Below are positions 381-61,406 of a DNA stretch of 64,000 bases, in pieces. A model generated the notes under the pieces. That model worked only from the letters and a program-made list of their open reading frames with translations, did no database searches and was not told where the DNA came from. How positions within the stretch are numbered: the stretch's first letter is position 1; each line of letters begins with the position of its first letter. Source of the DNA: a bacterium (GTDB lineage Bacteria > Patescibacteriota > Patescibacteriia > UBA2196). The position numbers were made by a program, and so were the translations under genes. The DNA is taken from the NCBI GenBank assembly GCA_035387885.1, contig DAOOOW010000001.1:43392-107391 (forward strand). The letters are read 5' to 3'.

Positions 381-1137
381 CAACTTTGTTACTATTTCTT
401 TTTGAGAAACGGACAAATATTTCTATTTATCTCTCTAATTCGCATTAGAGTTCGGACTATATCTTCCGCGCCTCCTCGGCGGGTCTAGCGTATAGTCTCT
501 GAGGATTTTAAAGATATAAATCTTGTTTTTTCGTTTTACGATACTTACCATTAACATTCATTTTATAAGCCAAATTAATAATTTTTTTAATTCCTGCTCT
601 ATTTGAATGAGCCCCACTTTGCATTAAAAAAACTATTTGCTTAAAAATTGTAAATGACTTTTGTTTGTCAGAAATAAAATTATATTTTTCAAAAAAAGGT
701 ATAATTTTATCAATTAAATCATCTCTATTTCTAACAACAAAAACATATGTATCGTCTTTCTTATTTTTAACATGGTTTTGTTTTAAATATCCGCAATCAA
801 AATATTTCTTTATAGTTTCCAAAATTTCTAATCGTAAATAACTTTGATTAATATGAAATTCTGGAATTACTTTTATTCCCTGTTTCATTTGCGGATCCTT
901 ATAGAAAGCGACATGAAAAGTTCCTTCACCTTCAGTAAAACCAACAATATACCATGGATTTATATGCTTTAATCTTTCCTGCTGATTGTCTGCGCTCAAC
1001 ACATTGTCACTATGTTTTATATTTTTCATCTATTTATTATAACATAGTAGTGTGAGATACTTCAACTCCTGTTCCTAAAAGGAGTTGGCCAGATTTTCCA
1101 GCATTTAGCTAGATTTATAGACAGCATGGATACTCCT
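381..1137 (-). mobile_element. Group I intron interrupting 23S rRNA, encoding a LAGLIDADG homing endonuclease
   Basis: 23S collinearity breaks after ...GAGACAGT (1138) and resumes at TTGGTCTCC (380). The minus-strand base before the 3' exon is G, consistent with the terminal guanosine of group I introns. The insertion point is near the E. coli 2593 region. Confidence 0.7.
508..1029 (-). CDS. LAGLIDADG homing endonuclease (intron-encoded, single-motif)
   Basis: Contains a LAGLIDADG-type motif (WYIVGFTEGEGTF). The ORF lies wholly inside the 23S intron. Confidence 0.85.
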   Translation of the reverse strand: MKNIKHSDNVLSADNQQERLKHINPWYIVGFTEGEGTFHVAFYKDPQMKQGIKVIPEFHINQSYLRLEILETIKKYFDCGYLKQNHVKNKKDDTYVFVVRNRDDLIDKIIPFFEKYNFISDKQKSFTIFKQIVFLMQSGAHSNRAGIKKIINLAYKMNVNGKYRKTKKQDLYL

Positions 1138-1171
1138 ACTGTCTCACGACGTTTTGAACCCAGCTCGCGTA

Positions 1172-1205
<34 letters not shown>

Positions 1206-1212
1206 GCTTCTA

Positions 1213-1248
<36 letters not shown>

Positions 1249-1475
1249 GAACTCCGCCGTCGCTATGGACGCTTGGGCGGAACTAGCCTGTTATCCCCGG
1301 AGTAGCTTTTATTCAATGATCTTTCAGCCACCTATATGGCATGATCGGTTCACTAACTTATGCTTTCGCAACTGCTCGTCTTGTTGGACTTGCAGTAAAG
1401 CAGGCTTAAGGGTTTGCCCTATCAATCCCGTTTCCATCGGGATCTAGCCTACCTTTGTAAATGCCTCCGTTACTT

Positions 1476-1507
<32 letters not shown>

Positions 1508-2889
1508 ACCAGATAATGTCCCCCTATAGGGGTTAGACTTACTAAATAACAAGGGTGGTATCTCACTATTGTCCCGATTGCTCGGGGCTCCCACCTATGC
1601 TGAACATGTTAATCAATAAATCAATATCAAGTTGTAGTAAAGCTTCACGGGGTCTTTTCGTCTAACTGTGAGAAGCCAGCATCTTTACTGGCATTGCAAT
1701 TTCACCGAGTCCCTTTTTAAGACAGTTTTCAGACCGTTATGCCATTCGTGCAGGACGGAACTTACCCGTCAAGGAATTTCGCTACCTTAGGACGATTATA
1801 GTTATCGCCGGCGTTCATCCGCGCTTCGGATCAGAGCTAGTCTCGATAAATCGATTTTCACCCCTCACGTTAACGTTCGGACACTGGCCAGGCATCAGCC
1901 CCTATACGTAGTCTTGCGACTTAGCAGGGACCTGTGTTTTTGGTAAACAGTCGCCTGAAACACGTTGGTTGCACCCCACATTGCTGTGGGGAGAGCTTAT
2001 CCCGAAGTTACGCTCGTTTTTTTGCCGAGTTCCTTAAAAAAGGGTTCTCTCGTTCACCTTAGTATACTCAACCCGCCTACCTGTGTCGGTTTACGGTACG
2101 GTTACTTTAATTCATGACTCTTGGTTTTTCTTGGCATTCAATCACATGAATTCGATCCAGCCGGAGCTTTCACTTCTACCAGCCGCGCCTCGTTAGACTC
2201 GGGCGGAAATCTCAAATTCCAAATCCTAAATTCCAAATAAATATCAAATTTAAAAAATCAAATTATAAATTATTTTAAAATTTAAAAATTTAATCATTAA
2301 AAATTATTTGGAAATTGAAAATTGAAAATTGGAAATTCCGTGCCGAATGCAATGAGGCACGGCCGGAACGTCATAGCCATAGGACGCTCATTCACTTGAA
2401 TACGTCGCCAAAAAGATAAAATTAAAGTAGGACAGGAATATTAACCTGTTCTTCCATCTTGTGTGACCCTTGGGCCATACAATTAGGATCGCCTAACCCT
2501 GGGATGACAGTCATTGCCCAGGAAACCTGAGGCTTTCGGTGGGCAGGATTCTCACCTGCCTTTTTGTTACTCATGCCAACATTCTTACTTCTGCTTCCTC
2601 CACACTCCCTCGCGGGATATGCTTCGCAGGTTAACAGAATACTCCTCTACCACATCACTGCTACGCAGTGGAAATCCGAAATCACAAATTCTAAATCCGA
2701 AACAATATCTAAATTCAAAAAAATAAAATATTAAAATTTTAAATTTAAATTTTTTAAATTTGTTTCGAATTTCGATATTCGAATTTCGTGCTTCCATTGC
2801 GAAGCAATGACATCCTCATCTTCGGTATTATATTTAGCCCCGAACATTTTTGGCGCATCTTCTCTTGACCAGTGAGCTATTACGCTATC

Positions 2890-2921
<32 letters not shown>

Positions 2922-3505
2922 TGGTTGTATGAGAAAAAACACCACCTTTAACACTTAATATAAATTTAGGGACCTTAGATAGAGATCTGGGCTGTTTCCC
3001 TTTTGACAATGAAGCTTAGCCCCCACTGTCTGACTACTGGAAATTTTAACCGGTATTCGGAGTTTGGTTGGGGAGGATATCTTGCGACTCCAGCCCCATC
3101 CAGTGCTCTACCCCCGGTTAAATATTAACCAGCGCTAGCCCTGAAGCTATTTCGAGGAGAACCAGCTATTACCAGGTTCGATTGGAATTTCACCCCTAAC
3201 CACAGCTCATCCCCGCGTGTTGTACGGCGCGTGAGTTCGGACCTCCTCCCACATTTCTGAGGGACTCATCCTGGCCATGGCTAGATCACCTGGTTTCGGG
3301 TCATACACATGCTGCCTTAAACGCCCATTTAAGACTTGGTTTCCCTATGCCTTAATCCGATTAACGGACTTAGACAAGCAACATAAGTATACTCGTTGGC
3401 TCATTCTTCAATAGGCACACCATTGTCCCGATTACTCGAGACTTTGATTCTTTGAAAACGTATGGTTTCAGAAACTATTTCATCCCCCTCACCGGGGTGC
3501 TTTTA

Positions 3506-3536
<31 letters not shown>

Positions 3537-4710
3537 ATCTTCGAAAGTATTTAGCCTTGGGGCATAGTCGCCCCTGCTTCAAACAGGATTTCACGTGTCC
3601 TGCCCTACTTAAGGTTCGTCATAATGAGATCTTTTCTTTTTGTATACTGGACTATCACCATCTGTGGTATTAGCTTTCCAGCTAATTTCTACTAAGAAAA
3701 AATTTTGTAACTCATTTTTTGTGTTATAAGCCACAAAAACTGACGCCTTGCAACACCTTAAACAGCAACGGCTCATACCTTTAAATACCGCTGCTCCGCA
3801 TCGGCATGCTAATTAATACAAATTATTTACGAATTATACAAATATAAATATTCGTAATAATTCGCAATTTTAATTCGCAAAATTCGCAGTCCAATGCGAA
3901 GCATTGGTAAAACACTGTTTAGGTTTAGGCTTTTCCCGGTTCGTTCGCCACTACTACGGGAATCATTATTATTTTATTTTCCTCCGCTTACTGAGATGTT
4001 TCACTTCAGCGGGTAAGCATCCCTCACTAACTTTTTGCTCCTTTAAAATTTAATCTTAAACATTTTTTGTTCATAAATATTTTATTTTTTATTTACAAAC
4101 ATTTTTATAAAAAAGATAAAATAATAAGCAGAAAGTTAGTGAGGGATAACGCAGGTTTACTACGTTGAGTTTCCTCATTCGGAAATCTCCGGATCAAAGT
4201 TTGCTTGGGAACTCCCCGGAGCTTATCGCACCCTGCCACGTCCTTCATCGCCTTTCGAAGTCTAGGCATCCACCATACGCCATAGTTCTAATATCCTTTT
4301 AAAAATCTTTTATTTTAAAATTTGAAACGTATTTATTACGTGCCTGCCCCGCATTTGCGGGGTAAAAAGATCACGCTTGTCCCGCGACTGCGGGATAAAT
4401 TCGCTTCGTTTTTACTCGATGTACATCCAGCACTAACTTTTTGCCAGTTTAAATATTTATTCTTAAAAACATTATTTAAAAAAATAATTTCTATTTTCCA
4501 TTAAACAAGGTCAATTAAAAAATAAATAAGCAAAAAGTTAGTGCTGGATAAATTGCTTTTACTTTATATATTGATTTCTCCTTTAATAAATTTTTAAAGT
4601 CCTATCCTTATCAACTAATTTCCATCTATTATATATAAACAAAAATTAACTGATAAATTTTTTCAAAATATTCGCATTTAATTCGCAATTTCAATTCGCA
4701 CAATTCGCAT

Positions 4711-6534: not shown

Positions 6535-9129
6535 TTATTTTTTTGGCAAGGGGTGCCTCAATCGCCAAATTAAAATAACTAAAATTAAAATAATTAACCA
6601 AGAAAAAACCAACAAATATGGCCACCAAGTACTCAATTTCTTTTCTTGGCCAGAAATTGTTGGATTTTTTGTTTCTTGCGAGTTGTTGGTGATAATAATA
6701 TCTTCTTGGCTTCTTGGCAAAATCCTTAAACCACTTTCGGTGGGCGAAAAAATACCACTTACTGCAACTCTGGCAGCTAAAGTTAAATTAAGTTCAGACA
6801 TATTTAAATTAGTGCCGGACTTTAAAGTTACTTTGATTTCACCGCTCCCATCATCTAACCAAAAATAATCTTTACCAATGTCTGTAATTTCGCCAATTAT
6901 TTTTATTAAAGAACCTTTCCAGGAGTCATCTTCTTTTAATTCAACAATCTCAATTTGTTCGGCTTGAGGCAAATCTGCCAGAGCTATTTTTGTAATGGCC
7001 GATTGATCTTTAATTTTAATTCTTCTTTCACCATAAGCTGTGCTTAATTCCCCAACAATTTGCAGGCGCTCGCCAAGTTGTAATTCTGGCCAATCTTTTT
7101 TAGAAGAATATATTTGTATACCTTCAGTCCCGACCACATAAAAAATGTTTACACCCAAAACTCCAGGCAAAACCGCCACCACTCCCTCGATTTGTACGTT
7201 GGTGCCATCTGCCAATTCTTTAATATCGGCCAAGGTTGTTTTTGTCAAACTTGTACCTAAAACTTTTGTAGTAGTTTTTTTAGTTGTCGCAGTTGTAGCT
7301 GCTTTAGGAGTAGTATTTTCTTCTTCTTGCCACCAAAATTTTTCTGCCACTTCTGATTTAATAATTTCAGTTTTTTCATCAAACAAATTTTCTGAATCAA
7401 TAACTTTTAAACCAATTTTTAAAGGCAATTTATCTAATTTAATAGTTAAAAGCGGGGAAGAGGTCGAAAATGTGCTGGTGGCATTATTTAAAATACTAAC
7501 TGGATAATTAAAATGCCATTCGTAAATTAAATCTTCACCTTCAGGATCACTTGATTCGCTAGCATCTAATAAAATTTCTTGGCCCGAATTTATTTCCCCA
7601 CTGACTTCAAAATAGGCATCAGGGGCTAAATTATTTCTAGTGTATAAATTAATGGCTAAAGGTGTGGCAGTTTTAGACCAATAATATTGTCCATCAGCAG
7701 CCAACATATAGACTTCGCCTTCTAAAACATTTTTAGAATATTTAAGAGTATCGACAATTTTACCTGTTGGATCAAGCAATTGGATTTCTTCACCGCCAGT
7801 ATTTTTTAAATTCAAATTAGTAATATATTTTGGCAAAAGAAAAAAATGTCCAGCTTCCAAATAAGGCCACTTAAAATCTGTTTCTTTAATAATGTATTCA
7901 CCAAGTTCAGTTTTAATTTTCCAATCAACCAAAGGAAACATTTCGCCTTCTAAACTTTTTATTTCTATCCACTCGCCTAAATTTTCTGAATTTATTTCTT
8001 TATTTAAAATTTTTTTCTGATCAAAAGGCTTGTCTAGCTTTAAATTGCCAAAATCTGAGCCAATTGGATTAGCCATAATTTCATTAAGCTTAAATCTTTG
8101 GGCATAAGTTTTTATATAAGATGCGCCCGAACCACCGCCAGCGGTTTCTTTTTGTATTTCCGTAATAATATTATCATTATTTTGTGTTTGGCTAGTACTC
8201 CAATACCAAACACTAAACTCGTCTCTAGCCCAAACAACTTCTTCGGGCGCGCTTTCAATGTAACTAATTTCACAAACTAAATTATTTTGCTCATCAAATA
8301 GACGCACTGTTTCTCCACCTGTATTATTTAAAGATAAACCAGTAATATTTTTGGGTAGCACAAAAAAACCATTGTCCAAAATTGTAGTTGTAGCAAAATC
8401 CGCAATTTTAATAACATAACTGGTGTTAGCCAAATCACTAATTTTCCAATTAATCAAATCAATCGTTGTAGTGCTTAAATTTTTTAATTCAATCCATTCA
8501 TTATCATCAACTCCAGCTGGATTAGGCAGCAACTCATTAATAACGATTTTATGGTCAGAAGTTTCTACGGCTGGCGCGACAACCCCAGAACTATTTTGGG
8601 CTTGGGGTGTACCATTGGCCAGGGCGCTGTTTTGCCAATTCAAATCAGTTTTTCTTTCCATGGTTAATTTATTATCTTTATCACCGGCCAACCAGGCACT
8701 GCTATTATCAACCAGGTCAATAACCTGGCCTTCGCTGTCAATTAACTGCAATATTTCTCCTGTATCTTCCAGAGCACCAGAATAAATTTGATTAGCCACA
8801 ATTTCTGGCACAGTATTATCGTCTGTGCGTTCTAATAGATAATATTCGCCGGCAGCTAAAGTACTAGAAGCTAAGTGGATTAAGGGTGAGCCATCTTCAG
8901 CTTTAAGAATCCAGCCTGTTAAATCAATGCTTTGTGAACTAATATTTTTTAATTCTAACCATTCCTTACTGGATGAATCGCTATTACCCATCCAAGCAAT
9001 TTCATTAATTAAAACATCTTGGAAATTAACTGCTTGCGCTGGTTTTAAAAATAAAAAAATCCCGCTAAATAGCGAGACACCAAAACAAGCAAATATTATA
9101 ATAAATTTTAGCAGTTTACTTTGCATAAG
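6535..9129 (-). CDS. Large secreted/anchored surface protein with three lamin-tail-domain (LTD) repeats, a PKD-like domain, a Thr/Lys-rich linker and a C-terminal TM anchor
   Basis: Start chosen at MQSKLL (signal peptide), because the longer ORF overlaps tRNA-Leu. Repeated NE(I/L)..NP.G.D..EWIELKN.S...IDL..W motifs typical of LTD. C-terminal hydrophobic helix. Confidence 0.7.
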   Translation of the reverse strand, partial: LMQSKLLKFIIIFACFGVSLFSGIFLFLKPAQAVNFQDVLINEIAWMGNSDSSSKEWLELKNISSQSIDLTGWILKAEDGSPLIHLASSTLAAGEYYLLERTDDNTVPEIVANQIYSGALEDTGEILQLIDSEGQVIDLVDNSSAWLAGDKDNKLTMERKTDLNWQNSALANGTPQAQNSSGVVAPAVETSDHKIVINELLPNPAGVDDNEWIELKNLSTTTIDLINWKISDLANTSYVIKIADFATTTILDNGFFVLPKNITGLSLNNTGGETVRLFDEQNNLVCEISYIESAPEEVVWARDEFSVWYWSTSQTQNNDNIITEIQKETAGGGSGASYIKTYAQRFKLNEIMANPIGSDFGNLKLDKPFDQKKILNKEINSENLGEWIEIKSLEGEMFPLVDWKIKTELGEYIIKETDFKWPYLEAGHFFLLPKYITNLNLKNTGGEEIQLLDPTGKIVDTLKYSKNVLEGEVYMLAADGQYYWSKTATPLAINLYTRNNLAPDAYFEVSGEINSGQEILLDASESSDPEGEDLIYEWHFNYPVSILNNATSTFSTSSPLLTIKLDKLPLKIGLKVIDSENLFDEKTEIIKSEVAEKFWWQEEENTTPKAATTATTKKTTTKVLGTSLTKTTLADIKELADGTNVQIEGVVAVLPGVLGVNIFYVVGTEGIQIYSSKKDWPELQLGERLQIVGELSTAYGERRIKIKDQSAITKIALADLPQAEQIEIVELKEDDSWKGSLIKIIGEITDIGKDYFWLDDGSGEIKVTLKSGTNLNMSELNLTLAARVAVSGIFSPTESGLRILPRSQEDIIITNNSQETKNPTISGQEKKLSTWWPYLLVFSWLIILILVILIWRLRHPLPKK

Positions 9130-10510: not shown

Positions 10511-11923
10511 ATGAAATCCAAACTTCTCATTTTATTTTTTCTTTTAACCATTACTTTAAGCACTGGTTTTGGTTGCAAGGGTGGTGACAAGGTCGCTCAA
10601 AAAGCTATTCTTGACCCAGTGGAAATAAATTTCTGGGGAGTTTTTGATTCTTCAGATAATTTTGAAACAATAATTGCTGCTTATCAATTAACGCATCCCA
10701 ATGTAACTATCAAATACAAAAAGATGCGTTATGAAGATTATGAACAACAAATGTTAGAAAGTTGGGCCAATGGCACTGGTCCAGATATTTTTGCTATTAA
10801 TAATACCTGGGTTGGAAAATATCAAAACAAAATTCTGCCTTTGCCAGCAACTGTAAAAATTCCAGTCATCGAAACAACCTCTGGATTTTTGAAAAAAGAA
10901 ACTAAGGCTGTGATCAAAGAATACAATACTTTAAACATCAATCAATTAAAAAATATTTTTCCAGATGTTGTCTATAAAGATGTCACTCGTCAAGAACAGA
11001 TCTATGCTCTGCCTTTATCCATTGATACTTTGGCGCTTTATTATAATAAAGATCTTTTTAATGCCGCCGGTATTGTGCAAGCCCCAACCACTTGGCAAGA
11101 ATTTTCCGAAGATGTAACTAAATTAATTAGACTTAATGCCAAAGGCGAATTTGAGCGCTCGGCAGCTGCCATTGGTGGAGCAAATAATATCAATCGTTCT
11201 AATGATATTTTAAGTTTACTCATGATGCAAAATGGCGCCACTATGGTTGATGGTAAAGACAAAATTGCTTTTGCTAAAAATCTAAATTCTGATAGTGATG
11301 TCAGACCAGGCGAACAAGCTTTGCAATTTTATGCCAGTTTTGCTCAACCATCCAAAGATGTTTATACTTGGAATAATACTTTACCAGAATCATTAGATAT
11401 GTTTTCATCTGGTAAATTGGCCATGTTTTTTGGCTATAATTATCAATTGCCTTTAATTAAAGCTCAAGCGCCAAGAATTAATTTTGCCCTAGCCAATATG
11501 CCTCATCTAAAAAATGACACTACTGATGCTTTTGGTTTGCCCATAAATTTTGCCAATTATTGGCTCTACACTGTTTTTAAAAAATCTGCTCATACTGATG
11601 AAGCTTGGGATTTTCTAGTTTTTTTAACCACTAAACAATACCAAGATGCCAATGGTAAACCTAGATACTATGCTGAAGACTATTTAGATACGGCAGCCAA
11701 TCCACCAGCCTTAAAAAGTTTAATCCAAAATTATCAAAATAAATATCCAGAATTAGCACCTTTTGCCAGTCAAATTTTAACTGCCGATTCTTGGTATCGG
11801 GGTAAAAATCCAGATGAAGCTAATAAAATTTTAAAACAATTAATTAATACGGCCGTGCTTGGCAATGAAGAACTTTATCGCGCAATTTCTGCTGCTGCTT
11901 CGGCTATTCAGCAATCATATTAA
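10511..11923 (+). CDS. Extracellular solute-binding protein (ABC transporter, family 1 SBP), lipoprotein
   Basis: Signal peptide plus lipobox-like TGFGC. Length and motifs (GPDIF..NN.W) fit sugar-type SBPs. Confidence 0.75.
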   Translation: MKSKLLILFFLLTITLSTGFGCKGGDKVAQKAILDPVEINFWGVFDSSDNFETIIAAYQLTHPNVTIKYKKMRYEDYEQQMLESWANGTGPDIFAINNTWVGKYQNKILPLPATVKIPVIETTSGFLKKETKAVIKEYNTLNINQLKNIFPDVVYKDVTRQEQIYALPLSIDTLALYYNKDLFNAAGIVQAPTTWQEFSEDVTKLIRLNAKGEFERSAAAIGGANNINRSNDILSLLMMQNGATMVDGKDKIAFAKNLNSDSDVRPGEQALQFYASFAQPSKDVYTWNNTLPESLDMFSSGKLAMFFGYNYQLPLIKAQAPRINFALANMPHLKNDTTDAFGLPINFANYWLYTVFKKSAHTDEAWDFLVFLTTKQYQDANGKPRYYAEDYLDTAANPPALKSLIQNYQNKYPELAPFASQILTADSWYRGKNPDEANKILKQLINTAVLGNEELYRAISAAASAIQQSY

Positions 11924-14193: not shown

Positions 14194-14415
14194 AAAAATA
14201 ATTATTTTTCTTAACTCCGACCACCCAGTCGGTTTTTTGTTTACCATAAAGTATATTTTATTAAATTAATTTTGTCTTACTACTATAACCACCCCGCCCG
14301 ACTCCGTCGAGGCACCCCTCCTTGAAAAGGAGGGGATAAATTTTATTCCTCTATTTTAATAGAAAAGAATATTAAAAAATAAAAAACGGCACTCATTGAG
14401 CGCCGTTTGTGTCTG

Positions 14416-14793
14416 TCATCTTCGCGACTTGGGGTTTCGAACTGCCCCAGCCGAGTTTATATCTTCCTCTGCTTGTCTTTGTCTCTGAGGAGTCAGCGAA
14501 CGAGAAGATTTTTTTTCATCTCCAGCAGATCTATGACCGTACTCTTGCTTATAAATTTTAACCTGTTTAGTCTGGCCAACAACCCCCACCGGGGTCTGTT
14601 CTGTAATTATCTCGGCCACAGTCCCGGTGATTGACTCTGCCTCTCCAGATTTAATTTTTTCAGAGACAGCTTCATTCATAGCACTCAGGCTATTGTTGTA
14701 ATTTGCTAGCGACTTGTGAATCGGGCTATAACATCCCGAGGCCACATACGCTACTAACAAAAAAACAACTGTCAAAACAAGTAGTTTTTTCAT
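14416..14793 (-). CDS. Putative lipoprotein (hypothetical)
   Basis: MKKLLVLTVVFLLVAYVASGC lipoprotein signal preceded by GGGAGG RBS. Lies in a region of elevated GC. Confidence 0.5.
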   Translation of the reverse strand: MKKLLVLTVVFLLVAYVASGCYSPIHKSLANYNNSLSAMNEAVSEKIKSGEAESITGTVAEIITEQTPVGVVGQTKQVKIYKQEYGHRSAGDEKKSSRSLTPQRQRQAEEDINSAGAVRNPKSRR

Positions 14794-14809
14794 CTCAACC
14801 TCCCAATAT

Positions 14810-15067
14810 TTAAAACCAACTTTCCACAAAATTCACCACTATTGGCCAGAGAACAGTGTTGGTAATTCCTTTAATCAGAAGAACCAATACTGCCGCCCAG
14901 CAAATGGAATGTAAGGTGGCAAAAAATATGGCCAATGTTTTGCTACCTTCATCTTTGCAATCATCTGCTTTTTCGACAAACCACAAACCGGCCAGAAAAA
15001 ACAATACAGCTACCAAAAAATGCGTAGCAAAACCTTGCGTCCAGTTTTGTTTAATAAGTTCCCACAT
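14810..15067 (-). CDS. Small integral membrane protein (hypothetical)
   Basis: Two or three predicted TM helices. Start uncertain. Same operon as 14416 and 15079. Confidence 0.4.
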   Translation of the reverse strand: MWELIKQNWTQGFATHFLVAVLFFLAGLWFVEKADDCKDEGSKTLAIFFATLHSICWAAVLVLLIKGITNTVLWPIVVNFVESWF

Positions 15068-15078
15068 AGTACCTCCTG

Positions 15079-15357
15079 TTATCTGGCTGGAGCGTTGAGC
15101 ATAATCCACCAGCTATACCAATCAATATCAAAATAATTAAAAAGAGTTAAAAACATAAACACAATGCCAGCAAAGGCAATAACACCTTCAATTACATCAA
15201 TTAAAAAAACAACTTTTTTTCCTATCTTCTTTTTCTTTTCAAAAAAAATACTAAGGCGATCTATGGAAAAATACAGAGCGGCACACAGACCAAGTGCAAC
15301 CAAGGTTGCCAATTGATCACGTATAAGATGCAACAGTGAACTTTCCGGAATCGGCAT
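15079..15357 (-). CDS. Small integral membrane protein (hypothetical)
   Basis: Two TM helices. First gene of the minus-strand operon. Confidence 0.45.
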   Translation of the reverse strand: MPIPESSLLHLIRDQLATLVALGLCAALYFSIDRLSIFFEKKKKIGKKVVFLIDVIEGVIAFAGIVFMFLTLFNYFDIDWYSWWIMLNAPAR

Positions 15358-15431
15358 AACAACCTCCTGCTATTAAATGACCTGATTTGAAATTACTATT
15401 TAATAAATCAGCATACTTTATTTGTATATTT

Positions 15432-15447
15432 TTGTCAACCTTGACAA
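15432..15447. promoter_or_regulatory. Perfect palindrome TTGTCAACCTTGACAA in the divergent promoter region. A second TTGACA..TATATT lies at about 15494-15515
   Basis: Read directly from the sequence. Sits between the divergent operons 15357(-) and 15539/15889(+). Confidence 0.4.
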
Positions 15448-15888
15448 AATTTTCAATCTATGCTAAGCTTGTATATTCTAATAAAAACAGCTCGTTGACA
15501 AATATTAATATATTAAGGAAGGAAAAAGGTGATTACTTGTGGCAAAAACCATAGCCACTTTTGTATATCAAACAAGTATCCCTACTAAGGATGAAAGGGG
15601 CCCATTCGTGGCTGTTCATTCTAAAATGATAACGGGGGTTCTTGTTAAGAAAACAGCGGGATGTATATGGATAAAACCGGCTGTTTTAAATGAGCGCGGA
15701 TCTGTTGTTTCTATTAATAGATCAATTGCGCAATTTTCAATCTCAAAAATATCTGGCCCGATAAACTTCAAGCAATCAAGCTAACGAGCCAGTATTTTAT
15801 ATTAATAAACAGACCGCGAAAAATTAATAGCTTTTCGTTGGTCATAGTGTTGTTTAATTTCTTAACTCCCATGGTGGAGGAGGAAAAA

Positions 15889-16812
15889 ATGAAAAAGAGC
15901 GAAACTTTTATTCCGGGCGCCAACCAAATCAGTATTGGGTATGTAGCACTGTTCCCCGGAAAACTGACCCAGCTGAGAGACGACATCCCATGGGTAAAAA
16001 CCCGTGTGCTCAACGGCAATTTGCCGGGGACGGAAAAGGACTCGGGGATAACCGTGGTGCCGTGTCATTTGGATCACGGCAAAATCACCTTACCCGAGGA
16101 CATTGCCAACCACGCGTGTATCCAAAGATGGGAACGCGATGGTGTGACCCATCAAGAGGGCGGTCCGCTTCAACCGGTTTATGCCCTCAAGTCTGTTGAA
16201 AGACGCGGAAAGGATGAAAATGGCAATGGATTCGTCATCCTGCCGTGTCTTACAGATGGCAGTGCCCCCTATGGGTCATTTGTACCCGCCCAAGACGGCC
16301 AAAAAGATTACATCGTCGCCTATGTCAACAACATTGTGGACGGCATAACGGTTATGCTGATGGTGGAAGCCATTGAAAACGGAGTCTATCACGCCCACAT
16401 CTCGGTCGCGAATTTTACAGTCAATAGTATGACCGGGGAAGTTTTGCGTGAGAACGCCATCAACAGAGCGTTTGTGGTCGAAGGACGTCCGGATACTCTG
16501 CCGAATTTTTCTTCAAGAGTCGGCGAAAAGTATCTCGAAGCCTTTAAGGCGGCTATGGCCATTTTCAAAAGTATGGCGAAAGGCGAACGCCAGTGCGCCA
16601 TGTGGGTCAAGGACATTACCCGTCCGATCACTGCCCCCGTCCCCGATGCACCGTCTCCGGTTGAAGAACCGGCATCGGCGCCCGCTCCGGAAGCGAAAAG
16701 CAAAGGTGGCAAAGGCAAAAAGGCTGCCAAACAGCCCACGGCCGATGTCACGACCAATGGTGGCAACGGCCACACCGACACTGTGCCAGCCCCCAACGAA
16801 GTTGTTGCCTAG
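15889..16812 (+). CDS. Hypothetical protein, strongly GC-rich (about 50% GC against about 30% background), Pro/Ala/Lys-rich C-terminal tail
   Basis: GGAGGAGG RBS before ATG 15889. No family recognised. Confidence 0.6.
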   Translation: MKKSETFIPGANQISIGYVALFPGKLTQLRDDIPWVKTRVLNGNLPGTEKDSGITVVPCHLDHGKITLPEDIANHACIQRWERDGVTHQEGGPLQPVYALKSVERRGKDENGNGFVILPCLTDGSAPYGSFVPAQDGQKDYIVAYVNNIVDGITVMLMVEAIENGVYHAHISVANFTVNSMTGEVLRENAINRAFVVEGRPDTLPNFSSRVGEKYLEAFKAAMAIFKSMAKGERQCAMWVKDITRPITAPVPDAPSPVEEPASAPAPEAKSKGGKGKKAAKQPTADVTTNGGNGHTDTVPAPNEVVA

Positions 16813-16831
16813 TCCATCAGGACAAGGCAGA

Positions 16832-16863
16832 AGCTCGTCTCTTAGGAGACGGGCTTTTTTATT
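16832..16863 (+). terminator. Rho-independent terminator
   Basis: AGCTCGTCTCTTAGGAGACGGGCT followed by TTTTTTATTTT. Confidence 0.6.
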
Positions 16864-16963
16864 TTTATTTTTTTAAAACTTTTATTTAATCCACAACTTG
16901 ACCGTTCATAATAATTCTGATAGCCTATTAAAATAAAATATAAAATATTTGGAGGAAAAAATA

Positions 16964-17458
16964 ATGCCCAAGCATACCGTAGCGTCTCTTAAAGAAATAC
17001 CTTATGAATTCCATCCTGATTTAGAAAAAATAATAATTGCCTCGCAAACAAACAGAGGCGAAGAAAGTGTGCAAAAAGTACTCATTTCTTTGGCGAGTCT
17101 TAAGGGTGTGGTAACCGTCATTCCCACCACCACTTATTCTAAAAGAGATCGCTATGGTATTGATATGCAAATTACAATTACTACACACACAAAACAAGAA
17201 AACCGGTTTGGCAAAATCGTTGCTAAAAAAGTGATCCTGACATTCCCTTTGCAAATCAAAAGTTCTGTGATAACAGCCCAAAATTTTATTACTAAATACC
17301 CAGAAAGAGAAATTCCTGTTCTGGTACATTTGCCAGGTGCAACCACAAAAGAAATTATTAATGCCTTTGGCAGATTATTAGACAAATATAAATCACCAAC
17401 GCAAAGGAAAAACGGCATCATTGAGATAGCCGGAGAATATTCAAAAGACTCACCATAA
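16964..17458 (+). CDS. Hypothetical protein
   Basis: GGAGGAAAAAATAATG RBS. No domain recognised. Confidence 0.5.
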   Translation: MPKHTVASLKEIPYEFHPDLEKIIIASQTNRGEESVQKVLISLASLKGVVTVIPTTTYSKRDRYGIDMQITITTHTKQENRFGKIVAKKVILTFPLQIKSSVITAQNFITKYPEREIPVLVHLPGATTKEIINAFGRLLDKYKSPTQRKNGIIEIAGEYSKDSP

Positions 17459-17540
17459 AGCCGAGATTAATTTAATTTTGGCTTTTCTTTTTTCTAAAAA
17501 TAAAGTACAATAAAAACAGTTATTGAAAATAAAAAAACAT

Positions 17541-17626
17541 GGAAGGGTCGCATAGTTGGTCTAGTGCGCACGCTTGGAAAGCGTGTGTGGGGCAACTCAC
17601 CGCGAGTTCGAATCTCGCCCCTTCCG
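17541..17626 (+). tRNA. tRNA-Ser (anticodon GGA)
   Basis: Anticodon stem-loop CACGC-TTGGAAA-GCGTG, long variable arm, T-loop TTCGAAT, discriminator G. Confidence 0.85.
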
Positions 17627-17765
17627 AATAGATGTCCTCAAGCAGACAAATGAACTGCTTCATTTGTCGGTGCGATTCGAACAGTTTTTCCTTATCCCGA
17701 AAACTCGGGATGGAAAAACATTGAGAATCCCTGCCTACCGGCAGACAGGTCGCCCCTTCCGAATT
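17627..17765 (+). repeat. tRNA-adjacent hairpin-rich element ending in a duplicate of the tRNA-Ser 3' end (GTCGCCCCTTCCGAAT)
   Basis: Direct repeat of the tRNA 3' terminus at 17611-17628 and 17749-17765. Internal hairpins, including ATCCCGAAAACTCGGGAT and CCTGCCTACCGGCAGACAGG. Confidence 0.5.
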
Positions 17766-17794
17766 CTATATTTTAAAAACTAAAACCCAAATAT

Positions 17795-18271
17795 ATGACC
17801 CCTGAACACAATCTTTTGTCTTGGAATTTTCTAGAATATCCCAATCACCAAAGACAAAAATCTTGGTACATTTTTGCTACCTTAATTTTTTTAGCTTTTT
17901 TAGCTTATGCGATTTTAACTGCCAATTTTCTGTTTGGTTTAATTATCATTATGGTAGCCATTATTATATTTATTAATCATAACAAAGAACCAAGAGAATT
18001 AACTTTTAGTATTGTACGCAATGGCATTTTAATAGAAAATAATCTTTATCGTTTTAAAGAGATTAAAAAATTTTGGTTGCTTTACGAACCACCACAAATA
18101 AAAAATATTTATTTTGAATTACAATCTGGTCTCATGCCAATTTTAACCATTCCCTTGGCTGAGCAAAATCCACTAACAGTTAGAAAAATTTTAAAAGACC
18201 ATTTGCAAGAAGATTTAACTAAAGAAAATGAATCAACTGCTGATGCTTTGGCTAGATATTTAAAACTTTGA
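17795..18271 (+). CDS. Hypothetical membrane protein (two TM helices)
   Basis: ORF with good coding texture. No domain recognised. Confidence 0.5.
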   Translation: MTPEHNLLSWNFLEYPNHQRQKSWYIFATLIFLAFLAYAILTANFLFGLIIIMVAIIIFINHNKEPRELTFSIVRNGILIENNLYRFKEIKKFWLLYEPPQIKNIYFELQSGLMPILTIPLAEQNPLTVRKILKDHLQEDLTKENESTADALARYLKL

Positions 18272-18319
18272 TTTTTTAAATAATCTATTTCGGAATTATT
18301 ATTTTGTATTATTATCTTT

Positions 18320-18391
18320 GCCCTTGTCGTTCAATGGATAGGACATGAGCTTGCGGAGCTCACAATGTAGGTCCGATTCCTACCGAGGGCA
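18320..18391 (+). tRNA. tRNA-Arg (anticodon read as GCG, with an unusual TCCGATT T-loop)
   Basis: Hand-folded cloverleaf: acceptor GCCCTTG/CGAGGGC, anticodon arm TGAGC-TTGCGGA-GCTCA. C at position 55 is atypical. Confidence 0.55.
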
Positions 18392-18552
18392 AAGATGATC
18401 ATAAAAAAATCTGCCAGTAAAAGTAAAGGTATTTTGTAGGTCCGTGGGTTTCGCGGTGTCCCTAAAGGGACACATCACTCAACCCGTTGTGGCTATAAAA
18501 ACTAAAGCAGTTTAGTTTTTATTTAACGCCACAACTCCTACCGAGGGCAAAG
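18392..18552 (+). repeat. tRNA-adjacent repeat element with a GCAG-loop hairpin, ending in a duplicate of the tRNA-Arg 3' end (CTCCTACCGAGGGCAAAG)
   Basis: Repeat of GTAGGTCCG and of the tRNA 3' end. Hairpin ATAAAAACTAAA-GCAG-TTTAGTTTTTAT is homologous to copies at 52565 and 26290. Confidence 0.5.
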
Positions 18553-24178: not shown

Positions 24179-24565
24179 TTATTTTTTATTATTTTTTATC
24201 TCTTCACCAGTAATCCATATTTTTTCCACAACCGAATCAATATTGTCAAAAATTTCTTTACTATTAAATCTTTCAACAATTATACCTATTGATTCTAAAT
24301 ATTTTTGTCTTCTATTATCATACTCCGCTTGATCATCATACTCATGGGTACGCCCATCAATTTCAATACATAATTTAAGAGTTGGTGCGTAAAAATCTAC
24401 TATGTAAGATCCAATACTGTATTGTCTTTTGAATTTATATCCCAATTGATTGGCTTTAAGTTTTGACCATAATAATCTTTCACCTTTAGGCATGGATTGT
24501 CTTAACAATCTTCTAACGCTTTTCTTCTCTTCTGTGTTATAGAGTGTGGTGAGCATAGAATACAC
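24179..24565 (-). CDS. DUF559 (Vsr/restriction-endonuclease-like fold) domain protein
   Basis: LLWSKLKANQLGYKFKRQYSIGSYIVDFY..KLCIEIDG.TH matches the DUF559 signature. Confidence 0.7.
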   Translation of the reverse strand: MYSMLTTLYNTEEKKSVRRLLRQSMPKGERLLWSKLKANQLGYKFKRQYSIGSYIVDFYAPTLKLCIEIDGRTHEYDDQAEYDNRRQKYLESIGIIVERFNSKEIFDNIDSVVEKIWITGEEIKNNKK

Positions 24566-25837: not shown

Positions 25838-25861
25838 TTTTTAAATTATAAATATTTAAAT

Positions 25862-25990
25862 TTTATTTCCCATACCCTTAGTAGGAGTTGAAGCTTCAAT
25901 TGAAAAGTAAACTGCTTTACTTTTAATTAGCCAAAACTGGCGAAGCGTTATCCCGAACACTCGGGATCGCTGAGCCCTCGGACCTACAAA
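25862..25990. repeat. Copy of the tRNA-associated repeat family (CCCTNGTAGGAGTTG end motif, CTGC-loop hairpin)
   Basis: Sequence similarity to the 26100-26340 and 18392-18552 elements. Hairpin AAAAGTAAA-CTGC-TTTACTTTT. Confidence 0.4.
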
Positions 25991-26004
25991 AATTTTATTA
26001 ATCT

Positions 26005-26076
26005 TACCCCCGGTAGGAATCGGACCTACATAACCAGCTTAGAAGGCTGGTGTTCTATCCATTGAACTACAGGGGC
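26005..26076 (-). tRNA. tRNA-Arg (anticodon TCT)
   Basis: Hand-folded: acceptor GCCCCTG, anticodon arm CCAGC-CTTCTAA-GCTGG. Shares the TCCGATT T-loop with the 18320 tRNA. Confidence 0.6.
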
Positions 26077-26099
26077 ATAAGTAATAAAATTTATAAAAA

Positions 26100-26340
26100 T
26101 TATTTTTAACATTACCCTCGGTAGGAGTTGCGGCGTTAAACCCCGCAAAATGCGGGGTAGTCACAAAGGGTTGAGCTTTATGCCGACAGGCATAGCGAAA
26201 CCTTCGAACCTTTATAAATAGCTTAGAAGGCTACTGCACTTGGGTTTGTTGATTCCTTCGGCATAACAACAAACCCGTTCTCGCACCAAAGCACTTAAAG
26301 CAGTTTAAGTGCTTTGGTCAGCTCGAACTCCATTGTGCTA
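26100..26340. repeat. MITE-like repeat element with imperfect terminal inverted repeats and an internal GCAG-loop hairpin
   Basis: Left end CCCTCGGTAGGAGTTGCGGCGTT is the reverse complement of the AACGCCACAACTCCTACCGAGGG tRNA-3'-like motif. Contains a TCT anticodon-arm-like segment and a CCCCGCAAAATGCGGGG hairpin. Confidence 0.45.
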
Positions 26341-26526
26341 CAGGTCAGCAAGAAATAAAATTTATAAAAACCAGTTTTATTCTATCCTATTTCTCCTAAT
26401 CTTGCAAGATTTTAAAACTTATGTTAATATAAAAATATTATTTTATAATTATTATTAATGACGTTTTTCTTGGCTTAAGGTCAAGTCTAACACACCTAAA
26501 GCTCGGATAAACGCCAAATTAAAACT

Positions 26527-39531: not shown

Positions 39532-39565
39532 GCTATTTCTCCTTTTTTCTCCCACCAGCCCCATG

Positions 39566-39652
39566 CCAGTAGGCTACTGCCTTAAAGTTATCGAGCAAAT
39601 AAGACCAAAAGATTTTATCCGCTCTTAGTTTTTAAGGCATAAGTCTACTGGC
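39566..39652 (-). promoter_or_regulatory. Conserved structured leader/operator, copy 1 (CCAGTAGACTTATGCCTTAA ...45 nt... TTAAGGCAGTAGCCTACTGG)
   Basis: About 90 nt nearly identical to the inverted copy at 61317-61406. Related to 41275-41360. Confidence 0.6.
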
Positions 39653-39821
39653 AAATAAATTTTAAAGGTGCTCTTTTTATTTAAATTAATTATCAAAATT
39701 TTTACTGCTTTATCTAACACTATAATTATCACATTTTTATCAAAAAGTGTCATTTCTGTCGACAAAATTATTAACTTGCTATTTTATTTTGCTTATATTA
39801 TAATAAAAATGAATAAATTTT

Positions 39822-51206: not shown

Positions 51207-51365
51207 AAGTAACAAGTAAATAATTTTAAAAATCAAATTTTAAAATTCAAAATAAATCAAAAATTAAAATTTTAAAACTTAAACTAAAAGGCTTAATATT
51301 TTAAAAATTAAATATTTAAAATTATTTTAAAATTTGATTTTTAAAATTTAAAATTTATTTATGTT

Positions 51366-52242: not shown

Positions 52243-52539
52243 GCAATTAATTTAGCGAAGAATCTTGGTTGGGATGATTTAAAAAATGAGATTAGAGGCG
52301 AAGTAGATGGTATGATTAATAGATGGACAATAAAAAATAAAGAATAAAATTTATAAAAAATAAACCCCCTGAGAATATCAAGGGGTTTTACAATTAAAGT
52401 AGGGGCACAAAATTTTGTGCCCCTACAAAAAATACTCCGCAGCTACAAGCGTGGGGTTAATTTTAACTTCGTTCACTGTTAGTTAAAAAACTAGATCCCT
52501 CCGCTCGTTCTTACAGTGGGTTTCACAATGCCTGTCGAC

Positions 52540-52760
52540 ATAATGCTTCACCCATTGTGGCTATAAAAATTAAAGCAGTTTAATTTTTATTTAACGCCAC
52601 AACTGGTCGAGATAAACTGCAGGAAAAAATAATGAGCTACCCCGCATCTAAAAGTGCGGGGTTAATTTTAACTTTGTTCGCGGGTGGTTTTGCCGTCATT
52701 CCATTCGGCAAAACCTGGCTCACTTCGTTAAAATTAAAAAGCCCCGAGCAGGCGGAGCTA
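52540..52760. repeat. Cluster of repeat-family copies (GCAG-loop hairpin, CCCCGCA..TGCGGGG hairpin, GTCATTCC element)
   Basis: CTATAAAAATTAAA-GCAG-TTTAATTTTTAT with compensatory changes relative to 18495. GGGGTTAATTTTAACTT occurs twice. Confidence 0.5.
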
Positions 52761-57069: not shown

Positions 57070-57267
57070 ATGGCATTACAATCAAAAGGACATTCCAAAA
57101 CAGCTAAAAGAACTAGACGTGGCGCTATTAAACTTAAAAAAATTTCTTTAACATCTTGTCCTAAATGTAAAGAACCTGTTAAACCGCACACAGTTTGCCA
57201 TAAATGCGGTAGTTATAAAGGTAAAGAGGTGGTAAAGATTAGGATTAAGAAGGCAAAGAAGAAATAA
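57070..57267 (+). CDS. rpmF: 50S ribosomal protein L32
   Basis: N-terminal MA.Q.K.SK..RRG. Zinc-ribbon CPKC...VCHKCGSYKG. Confidence 0.75.
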   Translation: MALQSKGHSKTAKRTRRGAIKLKKISLTSCPKCKEPVKPHTVCHKCGSYKGKEVVKIRIKKAKKK

Positions 57268-57390
57268 AAAAATTACAAATTCAAAATTACAAATACCAAA
57301 TAAATTCCAAATTACAATTTTTAAAATTTTAAATTTTGTTTTTAATTTTGGTATTGGTGCTTGTTTGGAATTTGATTAAAGTTTGCCGTT

Positions 57391-57882
57391 GTGGCAAACA
57401 TTAATTTGGAACTTGGAATTTTAAATTTTATGTCTAATAGACATTTATCAAGAACTATTGCCATGCAAACGCTCTATGAGTGGGATTTTAATCATCGCTC
57501 ACAAAAATTGGATAAACTAATTACTGATAATATAGGTCAATATGCCCAAGGATTAGAAGATACGGAATTTATCATTAGATTGGTTAAAGGCGTGGTTAAA
57601 CATATTGCAGAAATTGATGAAAAAATTATTAAATATGCGCCCGAATGGCCTTTAGATAAGATTACTATTTTAGATCGCAATGTTTTGCGTTTGGGAATTT
57701 ATGAATTGACTTTAGAAAAAAATGAAGTGCCACCCAAAGTAATTATTAATGAAGCCATTGAAATGGCCAAAACTTTTAGTGGGATGACTTCGGGGAAATT
57801 TGTGAATGGAGTACTTGGAACCGTGTACACAGAATTAGAGAATAGAAATGTTAAAGAAGTTTCTGTAGTTGATTCTTTATAA
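57391..57882 (+). CDS. nusB: Transcription antitermination factor NusB
   Basis: SRTIAMQTLYEWDF...ILRLGIYEL......PPKVIINEAIEMAK.F....FVNGVL. Confidence 0.8.
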   Translation: MANINLELGILNFMSNRHLSRTIAMQTLYEWDFNHRSQKLDKLITDNIGQYAQGLEDTEFIIRLVKGVVKHIAEIDEKIIKYAPEWPLDKITILDRNVLRLGIYELTLEKNEVPPKVIINEAIEMAKTFSGMTSGKFVNGVLGTVYTELENRNVKEVSVVDSL

Positions 57883-58102
57883 TATGAAAATTACAAATTC
57901 AAAATTACAAATATCAAATAAATTTCAAATAACAAAAAATCTAATTGAATAATGAATTATGGTTTTGAATTTTAATTTTGGTGCTTATTTGGGATTTGGT
58001 GCTTTGAATTTGGAATTTAAAATTAACTTAACTTTCTTGGCCGTTAGACAGCCAGACAATAAAAAGTCTGTAGTGTAATGGTCAAGATACAAAAGGAATA
58101 AT

Positions 58103-61167: not shown

Positions 61168-61316
61168 GACTGCAGAGAATGAGAGGAGAAAAAAGTCTAG
61201 AAAGAATTAATTCTTTTAAGGCGTTGAAATTAGTTTTTAATTCCCCTGCTCTTCTCTAAGAACGCGGGGTTTTTAAATCGAAAAATATAAAAATAGTACT
61301 TTGATAATAAAAATAT

Positions 61317-61406
61317 TGCCAGTAGACTTATGCCTTAAAAACTAAGAGCGGATAAAATCTTTTGGTCTTATTTGCTCGATAACTTTAAGGCAGTAGCCTA
61401 CTGGCA
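61317..61406 (+). promoter_or_regulatory. Conserved structured leader/operator, copy 2 (inverted duplicate of 39566-39652)
   Basis: About 90 nt near-identical to the reverse complement of copy 1. Precedes the receiver-like ORF. Confidence 0.6.

Follow-up and report, generated by a model that had tools for sequence, protein, structure and literature searches.

We identified a family of short, hairpin-forming repeats in a 64,000-nucleotide stretch of a Patescibacteria genome (contig DAOOOW010000001.1; "the window" below means this whole stretch). An element of 79-96 nt occurs six times in the window, and with five further copies from four related Patescibacteria genomes we have 11 distinct copies in total. 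The copies share a two-domain structure and occur in two orientations. Where they interrupt tRNA-derived sequence, they do so at two sites, and the interrupted hosts are dead copies of tRNA genes. Relatives have clean loci without the element, and the tRNA-Arg(TCT) locus of the window consists of nested tRNA cassettes. This repeat family is real and undescribed. We see an even chance that the element is a non-coding repeat of about 90 bp that acts at the DNA level: non-autonomous, selfish in the manner of MITEs (miniature inverted-repeat transposable elements) or REP (repetitive extragenic palindromic) sequences, old, diverged, and restricted to its lineage.

Structure of the repeat

The first domain of the element runs from (T/A)GGGTTT through an inner hairpin to AACCC. 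The second runs from GTTN(3-4)GC through a perfect 9-15 bp hairpin, closed by AA-GCAG-TT, to GCN(3)AAC(T). We built a covariance model from an alignment of seven copies and scanned the window with filters off. There were exactly six matches (34.7-92.9 bits), and the next best hit scored 13.8 bits. The copies in the window are:

17627-17722, - strand: Ser copy (34.7 bits, E ~1e-6), antisense to tRNA-Ser; its hairpin, from a scan for perfect hairpins and written on the + strand, is GACAAATGAA-CTGC-TTCATTTGTC
18445-18536, + strand: copy A (92.5 bits), in the T-loop of a tRNA-Arg remnant, in tRNA orientation; GCAG hairpin at 18495-18522, + strand
25886-25978, - strand: copy B (75.7 bits), in the T-loop of a remnant, in tRNA orientation
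26126-26204, - strand: copy C_T (69.8 bits), in the T-loop of pseudo-tRNA C, in tRNA orientation
26241-26329, + strand: copy C_D (82.8 bits), antisense to the tRNA in the D-loop of C, with a 15-bp GCAG hairpin at 26285-26318
52517-52604, + strand: copy D (92.9 bits), in the recA-efp spacer, without tRNA-like flanks

The copies from relatives are L001_D, L005_D, L005_T, L014, and L017 (the L numbers refer to loci fetched from related genomes). The Ser, L005_D, L014, and L017 copies were outside the training set of the model and yet were found by it, which implies that the copies form one homologous family. These matches also bear out a sequence-only reading of the window, made before our analysis, which had placed copies on both sides of tRNA-Arg(TCT) and another near 52.5 kb. 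The same arrangement recurs in four independent assemblies of the window's species, so it is not an assembly artefact.

The sequence-only reading also held that the loop of the second hairpin is always GCAG. This is true of five copies in the window. In copy C_T the second hairpin is instead CCCCGCATTTTGCGGGG, and one copy in a relative has the loop GCGG. (On the tRNA strand, the GCAG loop appears as CTGC in the Ser and D-loop copies.) Among perfect hairpins with 4-nt loops, 26 in the window have stems of 8 bp or more, and 5 of these have a GCAG or CTGC loop. All five fall inside elements, where we would expect about 0.2 by chance (our own arithmetic).

The stems vary from copy to copy while their complementarity remains perfect, and the compensatory changes that had been noticed by eye hold up in the alignments. 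RNAalifold on the seven-copy alignment gave the two-domain structure, with compensated changes at 16 of the 29 pairs. In the 11-copy alignment, which was fitted to the covariance model and so is somewhat biased toward pairing, 91% of cells are paired and 19 of 29 pairs have changed on both sides. None of 500 shuffles reached the observed pairing values, and sliding the partners by 1-3 columns reduced pairing to 33-48%. Across the 11 copies, there are 255 Watson-Crick pairs, 1 G-T pair, and 5 A-C mismatches among these cells. Compared to shuffled sequence, the elements fold stably as RNA (z of -5 to -6; copy A, -5.1). Copy A folds equally well as single-stranded DNA from either strand (z = -6.6 and -7.4).

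Rfam 15 gave zero matches over the element copies, either at the gathering score or with E up to 10; at the gathering score, the only matches in the window were nine tRNA genes and the 23S rRNA gene. We also rejected three known kinds of element. An integron attC site would have the GTT and AAC boxes in the other order; a T-box leader of glyA gave no Rfam match; and the stems are too AT-rich for transcription terminators, with no call on them from a terminator scan.

Insertion sites and dead tRNA copies

As the sequence-only reading had proposed, the element is associated with tRNA genes. ARAGORN identified nine tRNA genes in the window, and five of the six copies lie at three of them. By locus, three of the four are no more than about 250 nt from a tRNA gene, in a zone that makes up about 8% of the window (P ~0.002, by our own binomial arithmetic). 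Across the family, 8 of the 11 copies are in or beside tRNA-derived sequence. Seven of these interrupt it, at two sites only: the T-loop or the D-loop. The T-loop copies (A, B, C_T, and L005_T) are inserted after position 57/58 in the orientation of the tRNA, and the D-loop copies (C_D, L001_D, and L005_D) are antisense to the tRNA. The eighth, the Ser copy, lies just behind tRNA-Ser and is antisense to it, so that four of the eight tRNA-linked copies are antisense. Within a class, all insertion junctions are the same, and CKA/TCC flanks the element in both (the slash marks the insertion point). On the strand of the element, the intact T-loop reads TCCGA/T(T)CC and the intact D-loop, in antisense, reads TTCTA/TCC; both resemble 5'-TYCKA/TCC-3'.

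Two of the three tRNA genes are near each other, and the features around them are:

17540-17627, + strand: intact tRNA-Ser(GGA) (ARAGORN; Rfam tRNA, 56.1 bits)
17615-17629: direct repeat 1 of tRNA-Ser, its last bases plus 2-3 bases of trailer (exact-repeat search)
17723-17764, + strand: an extra small hairpin, CTGCC-TACC-GGCAG, and then direct repeat 2, TCGCCCCTTCCGAAT (17750-17764)
18319-18392, + strand: intact tRNA-Arg(GCG) (ARAGORN; Rfam), with direct repeat 1, TCCTACCGAGGGCAAAGAT, at 18378-18396
18435-18444, + strand: remnant of a second tRNA-Arg copy, TGTAGGTCCG, made up of its T-stem 5' strand and the beginning of its T-loop
18536-18554, + strand: direct repeat 2, which comprises the 3' strands of the T-stem and acceptor of the disrupted copy and its trailer bases AAGAT

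At tRNA-Ser, the 15-nt sequence TCGCCCCTTCCGAAT is repeated exactly at 17615 and 17750, and the second instance is a displaced 3' end of the tRNA. At tRNA-Arg(GCG), the 19-nt sequence TCCTACCGAGGGCAAAGAT is repeated exactly at 18378 and 18536, and the remnant at 18435-18444 is identical to 18366-18375 of the intact gene. Thus, the exact duplicates of tRNA 3' ends that had been reported downstream of both genes exist. Their description as the last 17-18 nt was only approximate, as the repeats enter the trailer. A motif that had been described as the shared end of all copies, CAACTCCTACCGAGGG, is present in just three of the six in the window, and consists of the element's last bases followed by the T-stem 3' and acceptor 3' strands of a tRNA-Arg remnant.

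These exact repeats bracket the Ser and Arg-GCG inserts as the attL and attR cores of an integrated element would, and att-site scars were among the original suggestions. The 120-140 bp between the repeats would then be attP arms after deletion of the interior, or a miniature element mobilised in trans. Integrating elements commonly leave partial tRNA genes in prokaryotes, and there too a full tRNA gene has a partial copy nearby with an exact repeat of the 3' end (PMC9897764). The DNA beside tRNA-Ser looks foreign: blocks of 43-55% GC at 14400-16860 and 16949-17458 lie directly upstream of it, in a window of 32% GC. (Scans of the ORFs, or open reading frames, of this block against Pfam and PHROGs gave no usable match; an adjoining 169-aa ORF had a weak match to DUF4365, E = 0.007.) Furthermore, in the related loci L010 and L013, there is no copy A after tRNA-Arg(GCG) and a 543-aa ORF is found there instead, so they do not provide a simple empty site. 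This ORF from L010 also had no usable match in Pfam or PHROGs.

However, there is no integrase, recombinase, or other mobile-element gene nearby, and a scan of viral contigs gave a single chance match (18 bits, within a phage gene). One family would have had to use unrelated cores (from tRNA-Ser and tRNA-Arg) in both orientations. The element lies inside the T-loop of a displaced fragment, not beside an unbroken att core, and its D-loop copies are in 5' fragments with duplicated leaders, which integration at a 3' end does not yield. Just 120-140 bp separate the repeats, and for copies B, C, and D and those of the relatives we found no such bracketing repeats. Finally, homologous copies occupy two spacers without tRNA genes. 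We consider integrase scars unlikely: they fit the two exact 3'-end repeats and leave the 5' fragments, the two orientations, and the D-loop and spacer copies unexplained.

The third tRNA gene, for tRNA-Arg(TCT), is flanked on both sides by interrupted pieces:

25858-25885, - strand: original 3' end and trailer left from the ancestral tRNA-Arg(TCT) gene, CCTAC TAAGGGTA TGGGAAATAAAATTT
25979-25987, - strand: T-stem 5' remnant, GTAGGTCCG, abutting copy B
26004-26077, - strand: intact tRNA-Arg(TCT) (ARAGORN, Rfam) with its own complementary leader and trailer, AAATTTTATTA / TAATAAAATTT
26113-26349, - strand: pseudo-tRNA-Arg(TCT) "C", a chimera of two tRNA types with an unpaired acceptor stem; anticodon arm at 26218-26234
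26379-26407, - strand: the sole match to a sigma-70-like promoter upstream of the array of C, tRNA, and B (a consensus match only; conserved in L010)

Pseudo-tRNA C holds two element copies, in opposite orientations, that flank its anticodon arm. This region had been described as a single element with terminal inverted repeats and an embedded TCT stem-loop. The TCT anticodon arm is indeed there, inside a pseudo-tRNA with two whole and opposite copies rather than one element. C occupies the ancestral 5' slot, directly behind the ancestral leader. Its 5' part is similar to that of the intact tRNA in L005, and both its T-stem 3' strand and its acceptor strand belong to the other type. The leader before C and the 3' end and trailer after B (25858-25885) match the native leader, 3' end, and trailer of the single gene in L010. 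Between C and B, the intact tRNA-Arg(TCT) has a separate, matched leader and trailer and a different acceptor stem. Because the ancestral leader is at C and the ancestral trailer is at B, a complete tRNA cassette now lies between displaced older pieces. The locus has remnants of at least three different alleles.

Across genomes, tRNA-Arg(TCT) genes are bracketed by 10-13 bp of complementarity between leader and trailer, which resembles a processing stem surrounding a single tRNA gene. Its sequence varies by genome and stays complementary, as in AAATTTTATTA / TAATAAAATTT, AAATTTTATTTCC / GGGAAATAAAATTT, and AGCGTTGTCGC / GCGACAACGCT; the stems are at 26078-26098 / 25988-26003 in the window, 7950-7968 / 8043-8060 in L010, and 8378-8398 / 8474-8490 in L012. 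Another peculiarity of these genes is a T-loop of TCCGATT, with C at the near-universal U55. It occurs in tRNA-Arg(GCG) and tRNA-Arg(TCT) of the window (18367-18383 and 26012-26028), in L005 (1935-1951), and in L012 (8446-8462). The T-loop is TTCGATT in L010, L001, and L003, and the other tRNAs of the window have normal T-loops. We considered and rejected the idea that C55 is a resistance mutation: the interrupted fragments have C55 too, and L012 also has it, yet has no element copy in the 21 kb that we fetched.

Every interrupted copy adjoins an intact gene for the same tRNA. When we ran ARAGORN on the interrupted copies in intron mode or with relaxed thresholds, we obtained spurious calls only. 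When we removed the inserts in silico from C or from the first pseudo-tRNA copy of L005, ARAGORN identified no tRNA, even with relaxed settings. Copies A and B are joined only to a T-arm and an acceptor 3' strand. The interrupted host sequences are dead tRNA copies.

In contrast, copies D and L014 (recA-efp spacer) and L017 (hsp20-vanW spacer) have no tRNA-like flanks. This implies that the tRNA-like ends of other copies belong to the remnant of the host and not to the element. It speaks against the earlier idea of a tRNA-derived, SINE-like retroelement (SINE is short for short interspersed nuclear element), in which the disrupted host had been taken for part of the element. A related idea is that the element is an intron, either group I or of the archaeal bulge-helix-bulge type, in a functional tRNA gene. 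The tRNA-like ends of three copies and the TCT anticodon arm inside C are what such models would explain, and group I introns are common in the tRNA genes of Patescibacteria (PMC13011429). Those introns are far larger than the element and lie in the anticodon loop, not in the T-loop or D-loop (PMC13011429). An element of 79-96 nt has nowhere near the length of a group I core and does not match any Rfam intron model. The D-loop and Ser copies run opposite to the tRNA, intact genes for the same tRNA are alongside, and removing the inserts does not restore a tRNA. As for a retroelement, we found no reverse transcriptase in the window or in the fetched loci. We regard both versions, including self-splicing, as very improbable.

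Other perfect hairpins, unrelated to the element, also occur in the T-loop or D-loop of dead tRNA copies (L005 1468-1516, L001 9702-9757, and L003 8932-8959). Examples are CCCTAAACC-ATAA-AGGTTTAGGG and GCCATGCACC-TTTA-TGGTGCATGGC. The loops of these pseudogenes thus collect several kinds of hairpin.

Related genomes and the nature of the element

The presence of the element differs between related genomes, as expected of DNA that is or was mobile. L010 and L013 are from one sample and have the same gene order as the window; serine hydroxymethyltransferase (SHMT) is 83% identical and RecA is 91% identical. In L010, there is one clean tRNA-Arg(TCT) between S15 and glyA, in a spacer of 300 nt (690 nt in the window). 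In L013, copy D is absent and the recA-efp spacer is 230 nt (1024 nt in the window). The tRNA-Ser and tRNA-Arg(GCG) loci of L016 are clean, and copy B is absent at the same site in L001, L003, L010, and L012. Conversely, L014 has a copy at the same recA locus as D, downstream of the recA terminator, and L017 has a copy between hsp20 and vanW that is antisense to both neighbouring genes. (Copy D adjoins another small repeat, GGGGTTAATTTTAACTTCGTTC, which follows a CCCCGC..GCGGGG hairpin at 52453-52476 and 52658-52681 and in L014 at 11290-11330; its inverse at about 52727-52745 overlaps the recA terminator region.)

L001 and L003 have 5' fragments of tRNA-Arg(TCT) with a duplicated leader, and the fragment in L001 contains a D-loop copy. 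In L005, the order from S15 to glyA is a pseudo-tRNA with a D-loop copy and other T-loop hairpins, an ORF with a GIY-YIG nuclease domain, a 5' fragment, an intact tRNA of the second type, and a 3' fragment with a T-loop copy. The GIY-YIG ORF (Pfam, E = 8e-12) is thus inside the tRNA-Arg(TCT) array. L017 has a GIY-YIG ORF that adjoins tRNA-Ser and is 37% identical to the one in L005. Both ORFs are small and have only the catalytic domain:

L005, 1541-1801: GIY-YIG ORF
L017, 1586-1849: GIY-YIG ORF

The SHMT of the window has an identical match in a protein labelled "bacterium", and its nearest named relatives are from the Patescibacteria group. A neighbouring 158-aa protein has a homologue in Candidatus Kuenenbacteria (62% identity), and ten further Kuenenbacteria-like contigs had zero copies of the element. 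A strict pattern for the A/C/D subtype, searched across 185,579 species genomes, matched a single genome, that of L005; either this subtype is narrowly distributed or the pattern is too strict.

Pairwise identity between copies is 41-85%. Copy A is most similar to L014 (83%) and D (82%), copy B is closest to L017 (73%), and C_T is closest to L005_T (75%), while identities among A, B, and C_T are just 54-63%. The family tree rests on just 88 columns. In it, the T-loop copies do not cluster, which favors repeated arrival at the T-loop site, or exchange between copies, over a single ancestral insertion.

The copies at the C_D position in L001 and L005 differ from each other and from C_D by compensated changes in the stem, for example GCAGACAAA versus GCAAGCAAA. 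We considered whether the element might be a functional structured RNA or signal, such as a hairpin in a pre-tRNA spacer that is cleaved by RNase III, or a small RNA with tRNA-like processing flanks. Besides the compensatory changes, both across the family and between copies at the same position in different genomes, this would account for the perfect 9-15 bp duplex stems, for RNA folds that are much more stable than those of shuffled sequence, and for the persistence of the elements in very compact genomes. Between genomes, the element is conserved at least as well as the SHMT gene, and the only promoter-like site at tRNA-Arg(TCT) is upstream of the entire array. Nevertheless, about half of the copies run against the local direction of transcription, and G-U pairs make up 1 of 281 cells, which is unusual for an RNA under structural selection. 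Elements lie inside decayed pseudogenes, close relatives lack them at the same loci with no sign of a replacement, and no Rfam family matches. We consider a functional RNA somewhat unlikely.

Instead, orientation independence, pairing that is almost entirely Watson-Crick, location in pseudogenes, patchy presence, and the lack of an Rfam match together point to a non-autonomous repeat that acts at the DNA level. Such an element would lodge preferentially in the DNA that encodes tRNA loops: in the T-loop after A58, and in the D-loop on the opposite strand. Insertion in either loop would kill the tRNA, so only copies in redundant tRNA genes or fragments would persist. Such survival would explain why every tRNA-embedded copy has an intact gene for the same tRNA next to it, and why its flanks resemble the 3' or 5' ends of tRNAs. 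The redundant copies would arise by local duplication or replacement of the tRNA cassette (leader, tRNA, and trailer). We infer that the element moved as DNA and was mobilised in trans by an enzyme. Breaks induced by a nuclease might promote the local duplications of tRNAs; the evidence for this step is the GIY-YIG gene at tRNA loci of two relatives.

Several observations weigh against a selfish DNA-level repeat. There is no transposase, integrase, or plausible mobilising gene in the window or the fetched loci, and in particular we saw no Y1 HUH transposase in the 64-kb window. There are no terminal inverted repeats: the ends, (T/A)GGGTTT and CAACT, are not complementary. Nor is there a regular target-site duplication, as 9 of the 11 copies have no flanking duplication, and the 15-nt (Ser) and 19-nt (Arg-GCG) repeats are of unequal length and enclose more than the element. 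The previously suggested mobile element thus fits the varying presence among relatives and lacks two hallmarks of a classical MITE. The flanks of the three copies in non-tRNA spacers have no common motif, and there is no fixed 4-5 nt target or tag at one end, nor a hairpin of constant sequence, of the kind that elements derived from IS200/IS605 or of the REP/RAYT type have: left flanks include TCCG, CACT, TTCT, ACAG, CTCG, and GTAT, and the stems vary freely.

Also, the two insertion sites rest on few independent events, and one insertion may have given rise to all three D-loop copies. The 41-85% identity between copies implies that they are old and gives no sign of recent movement or of a burst. 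L005_T and copy A are 85% identical, compared to 77% DNA identity for the SHMT genes; such similarity between genomes, on a par with that of a conserved gene, suggests constraint, and possibly function, rather than junk. The perfect stems of orthologous hairpins, maintained through compensated changes, suggest the same. These changes could reflect constraint, or they could reflect correction of palindromes at the DNA level by template switching, which is a known mechanism for such correction. Finally, the array of C, tRNA, and B is probably transcribed, and probably as one transcript, given that the only promoter-like match is upstream of C.

A stronger version of this reading is that the element is an active, site-specific invader of tRNA genes that recognizes a box in the T-loop and its look-alike in the antisense of the D-loop and that, together with GIY-YIG nucleases, drives the replacement of tRNA cassettes. 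We consider this quite unlikely. If true, a minimal genome would be the scene of an arms race over its essential single-copy tRNA genes, with a kind of tRNA-gene targeting that has not been described for non-autonomous elements of bacteria.

Known systems, other features of the window, and significance

The element shares several properties with MITEs, REPs and REPINs (REP doublets forming hairpins), ERIC (enterobacterial repetitive intergenic consensus) sequences, and the palindromic elements of Rickettsia (PMC3184786, PMC2229807). All are short, non-coding, multi-copy, and hairpin-forming; they are found in either orientation, in spacers and sometimes in genes, and are patchily distributed among strains. 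Unlike them, the element has no terminal inverted repeats, regular target duplication, or conserved tag of the GTAG type; its stems are free to vary while the loop and junction bases are conserved; and it lies mostly in DNA for tRNA loops. The double-hairpin elements of mitochondria (PMC2800124) are also about 80-100 nt with two hairpins, keep their structure over their sequence, and invade spacers and RNA genes of small AT-rich genomes. As they are organellar and have no sequence relationship to our element, the likeness is by analogy only.

In T-even phage, the GIY-YIG homing endonuclease SegB amplifies segments that contain tRNA genes (PMC13096335). The shared features are a GIY-YIG gene beside tRNA genes and the local duplication of segments with whole tRNAs (PMC13096335). 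In contrast to SegB, the GIY-YIG ORFs described above consist of the catalytic domain only and are found in L005 and L017, not in the window, and their activity and target are putative.

A further parallel is with the intervening sequences of 23S rRNA, in which an extended hairpin that replaces a loop is excised by RNase III; these are sporadic among relatives, and the host rRNA remains functional. The element is likewise an extended hairpin in a loop of a stable RNA with a sporadic distribution, but its host tRNAs are dead and some of the inserts are antisense. The 23S rRNA gene of the window is itself unusually long, and it is one of several other features that we noted:

508-1029, - strand: LAGLIDADG_1 endonuclease ORF, just past the 3' end of the 23S gene
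1053-4296, - strand: 23S rRNA gene, about 320 nt longer than the Rfam model, with AT-rich palindromic blocks at 2204-2340 and 2672-2793
70-109 / 4287-4326: a 40-nt stem, 90% complementary, that brackets the 23S gene and the LAGLIDADG_1 ORF together
24179-24565, - strand: DUF559 / MTES_1575 endonuclease-like ORF, between glyA and folD
39564-39654 / 61316-61406: a perfect 91-nt inverted repeat, 21.7 kb apart, that encloses dnaA, dnaN, efp, and recA

The AT-rich blocks of the 23S gene contain repeats of the CAAATTC type and have relatives in spacers (51211-51360, 57259-57450, and 57881-58018), which implies a second family of hairpin-forming insertions. glyA and folD are adjacent in L001 and L003, and a homologue of the DUF559 ORF follows glyA in L005. 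The 91-nt inverted repeat could be the boundary of an invertible segment, a pair of insertion-element ends, or a feature of the assembly.

If the element is a selfish DNA-level repeat, then even Patescibacteria genomes of about 1 Mb carry families of structured selfish repeats, and a small DNA element can prefer the most conserved sequence in tRNA genes. The tRNA loci would store several generations of dead copies, which would confuse both the annotation of tRNAs and searches for att sites. If the element is instead a functional RNA, it would represent a new RNA family that is specific to Patescibacteria. A covariance model is now available for mining genomes of the candidate phyla radiation (CPR), and loci like that of tRNA-Arg(TCT) allow a test of whether GIY-YIG nucleases are behind the turnover of tRNA genes in bacteria, in the way that SegB is in phage.

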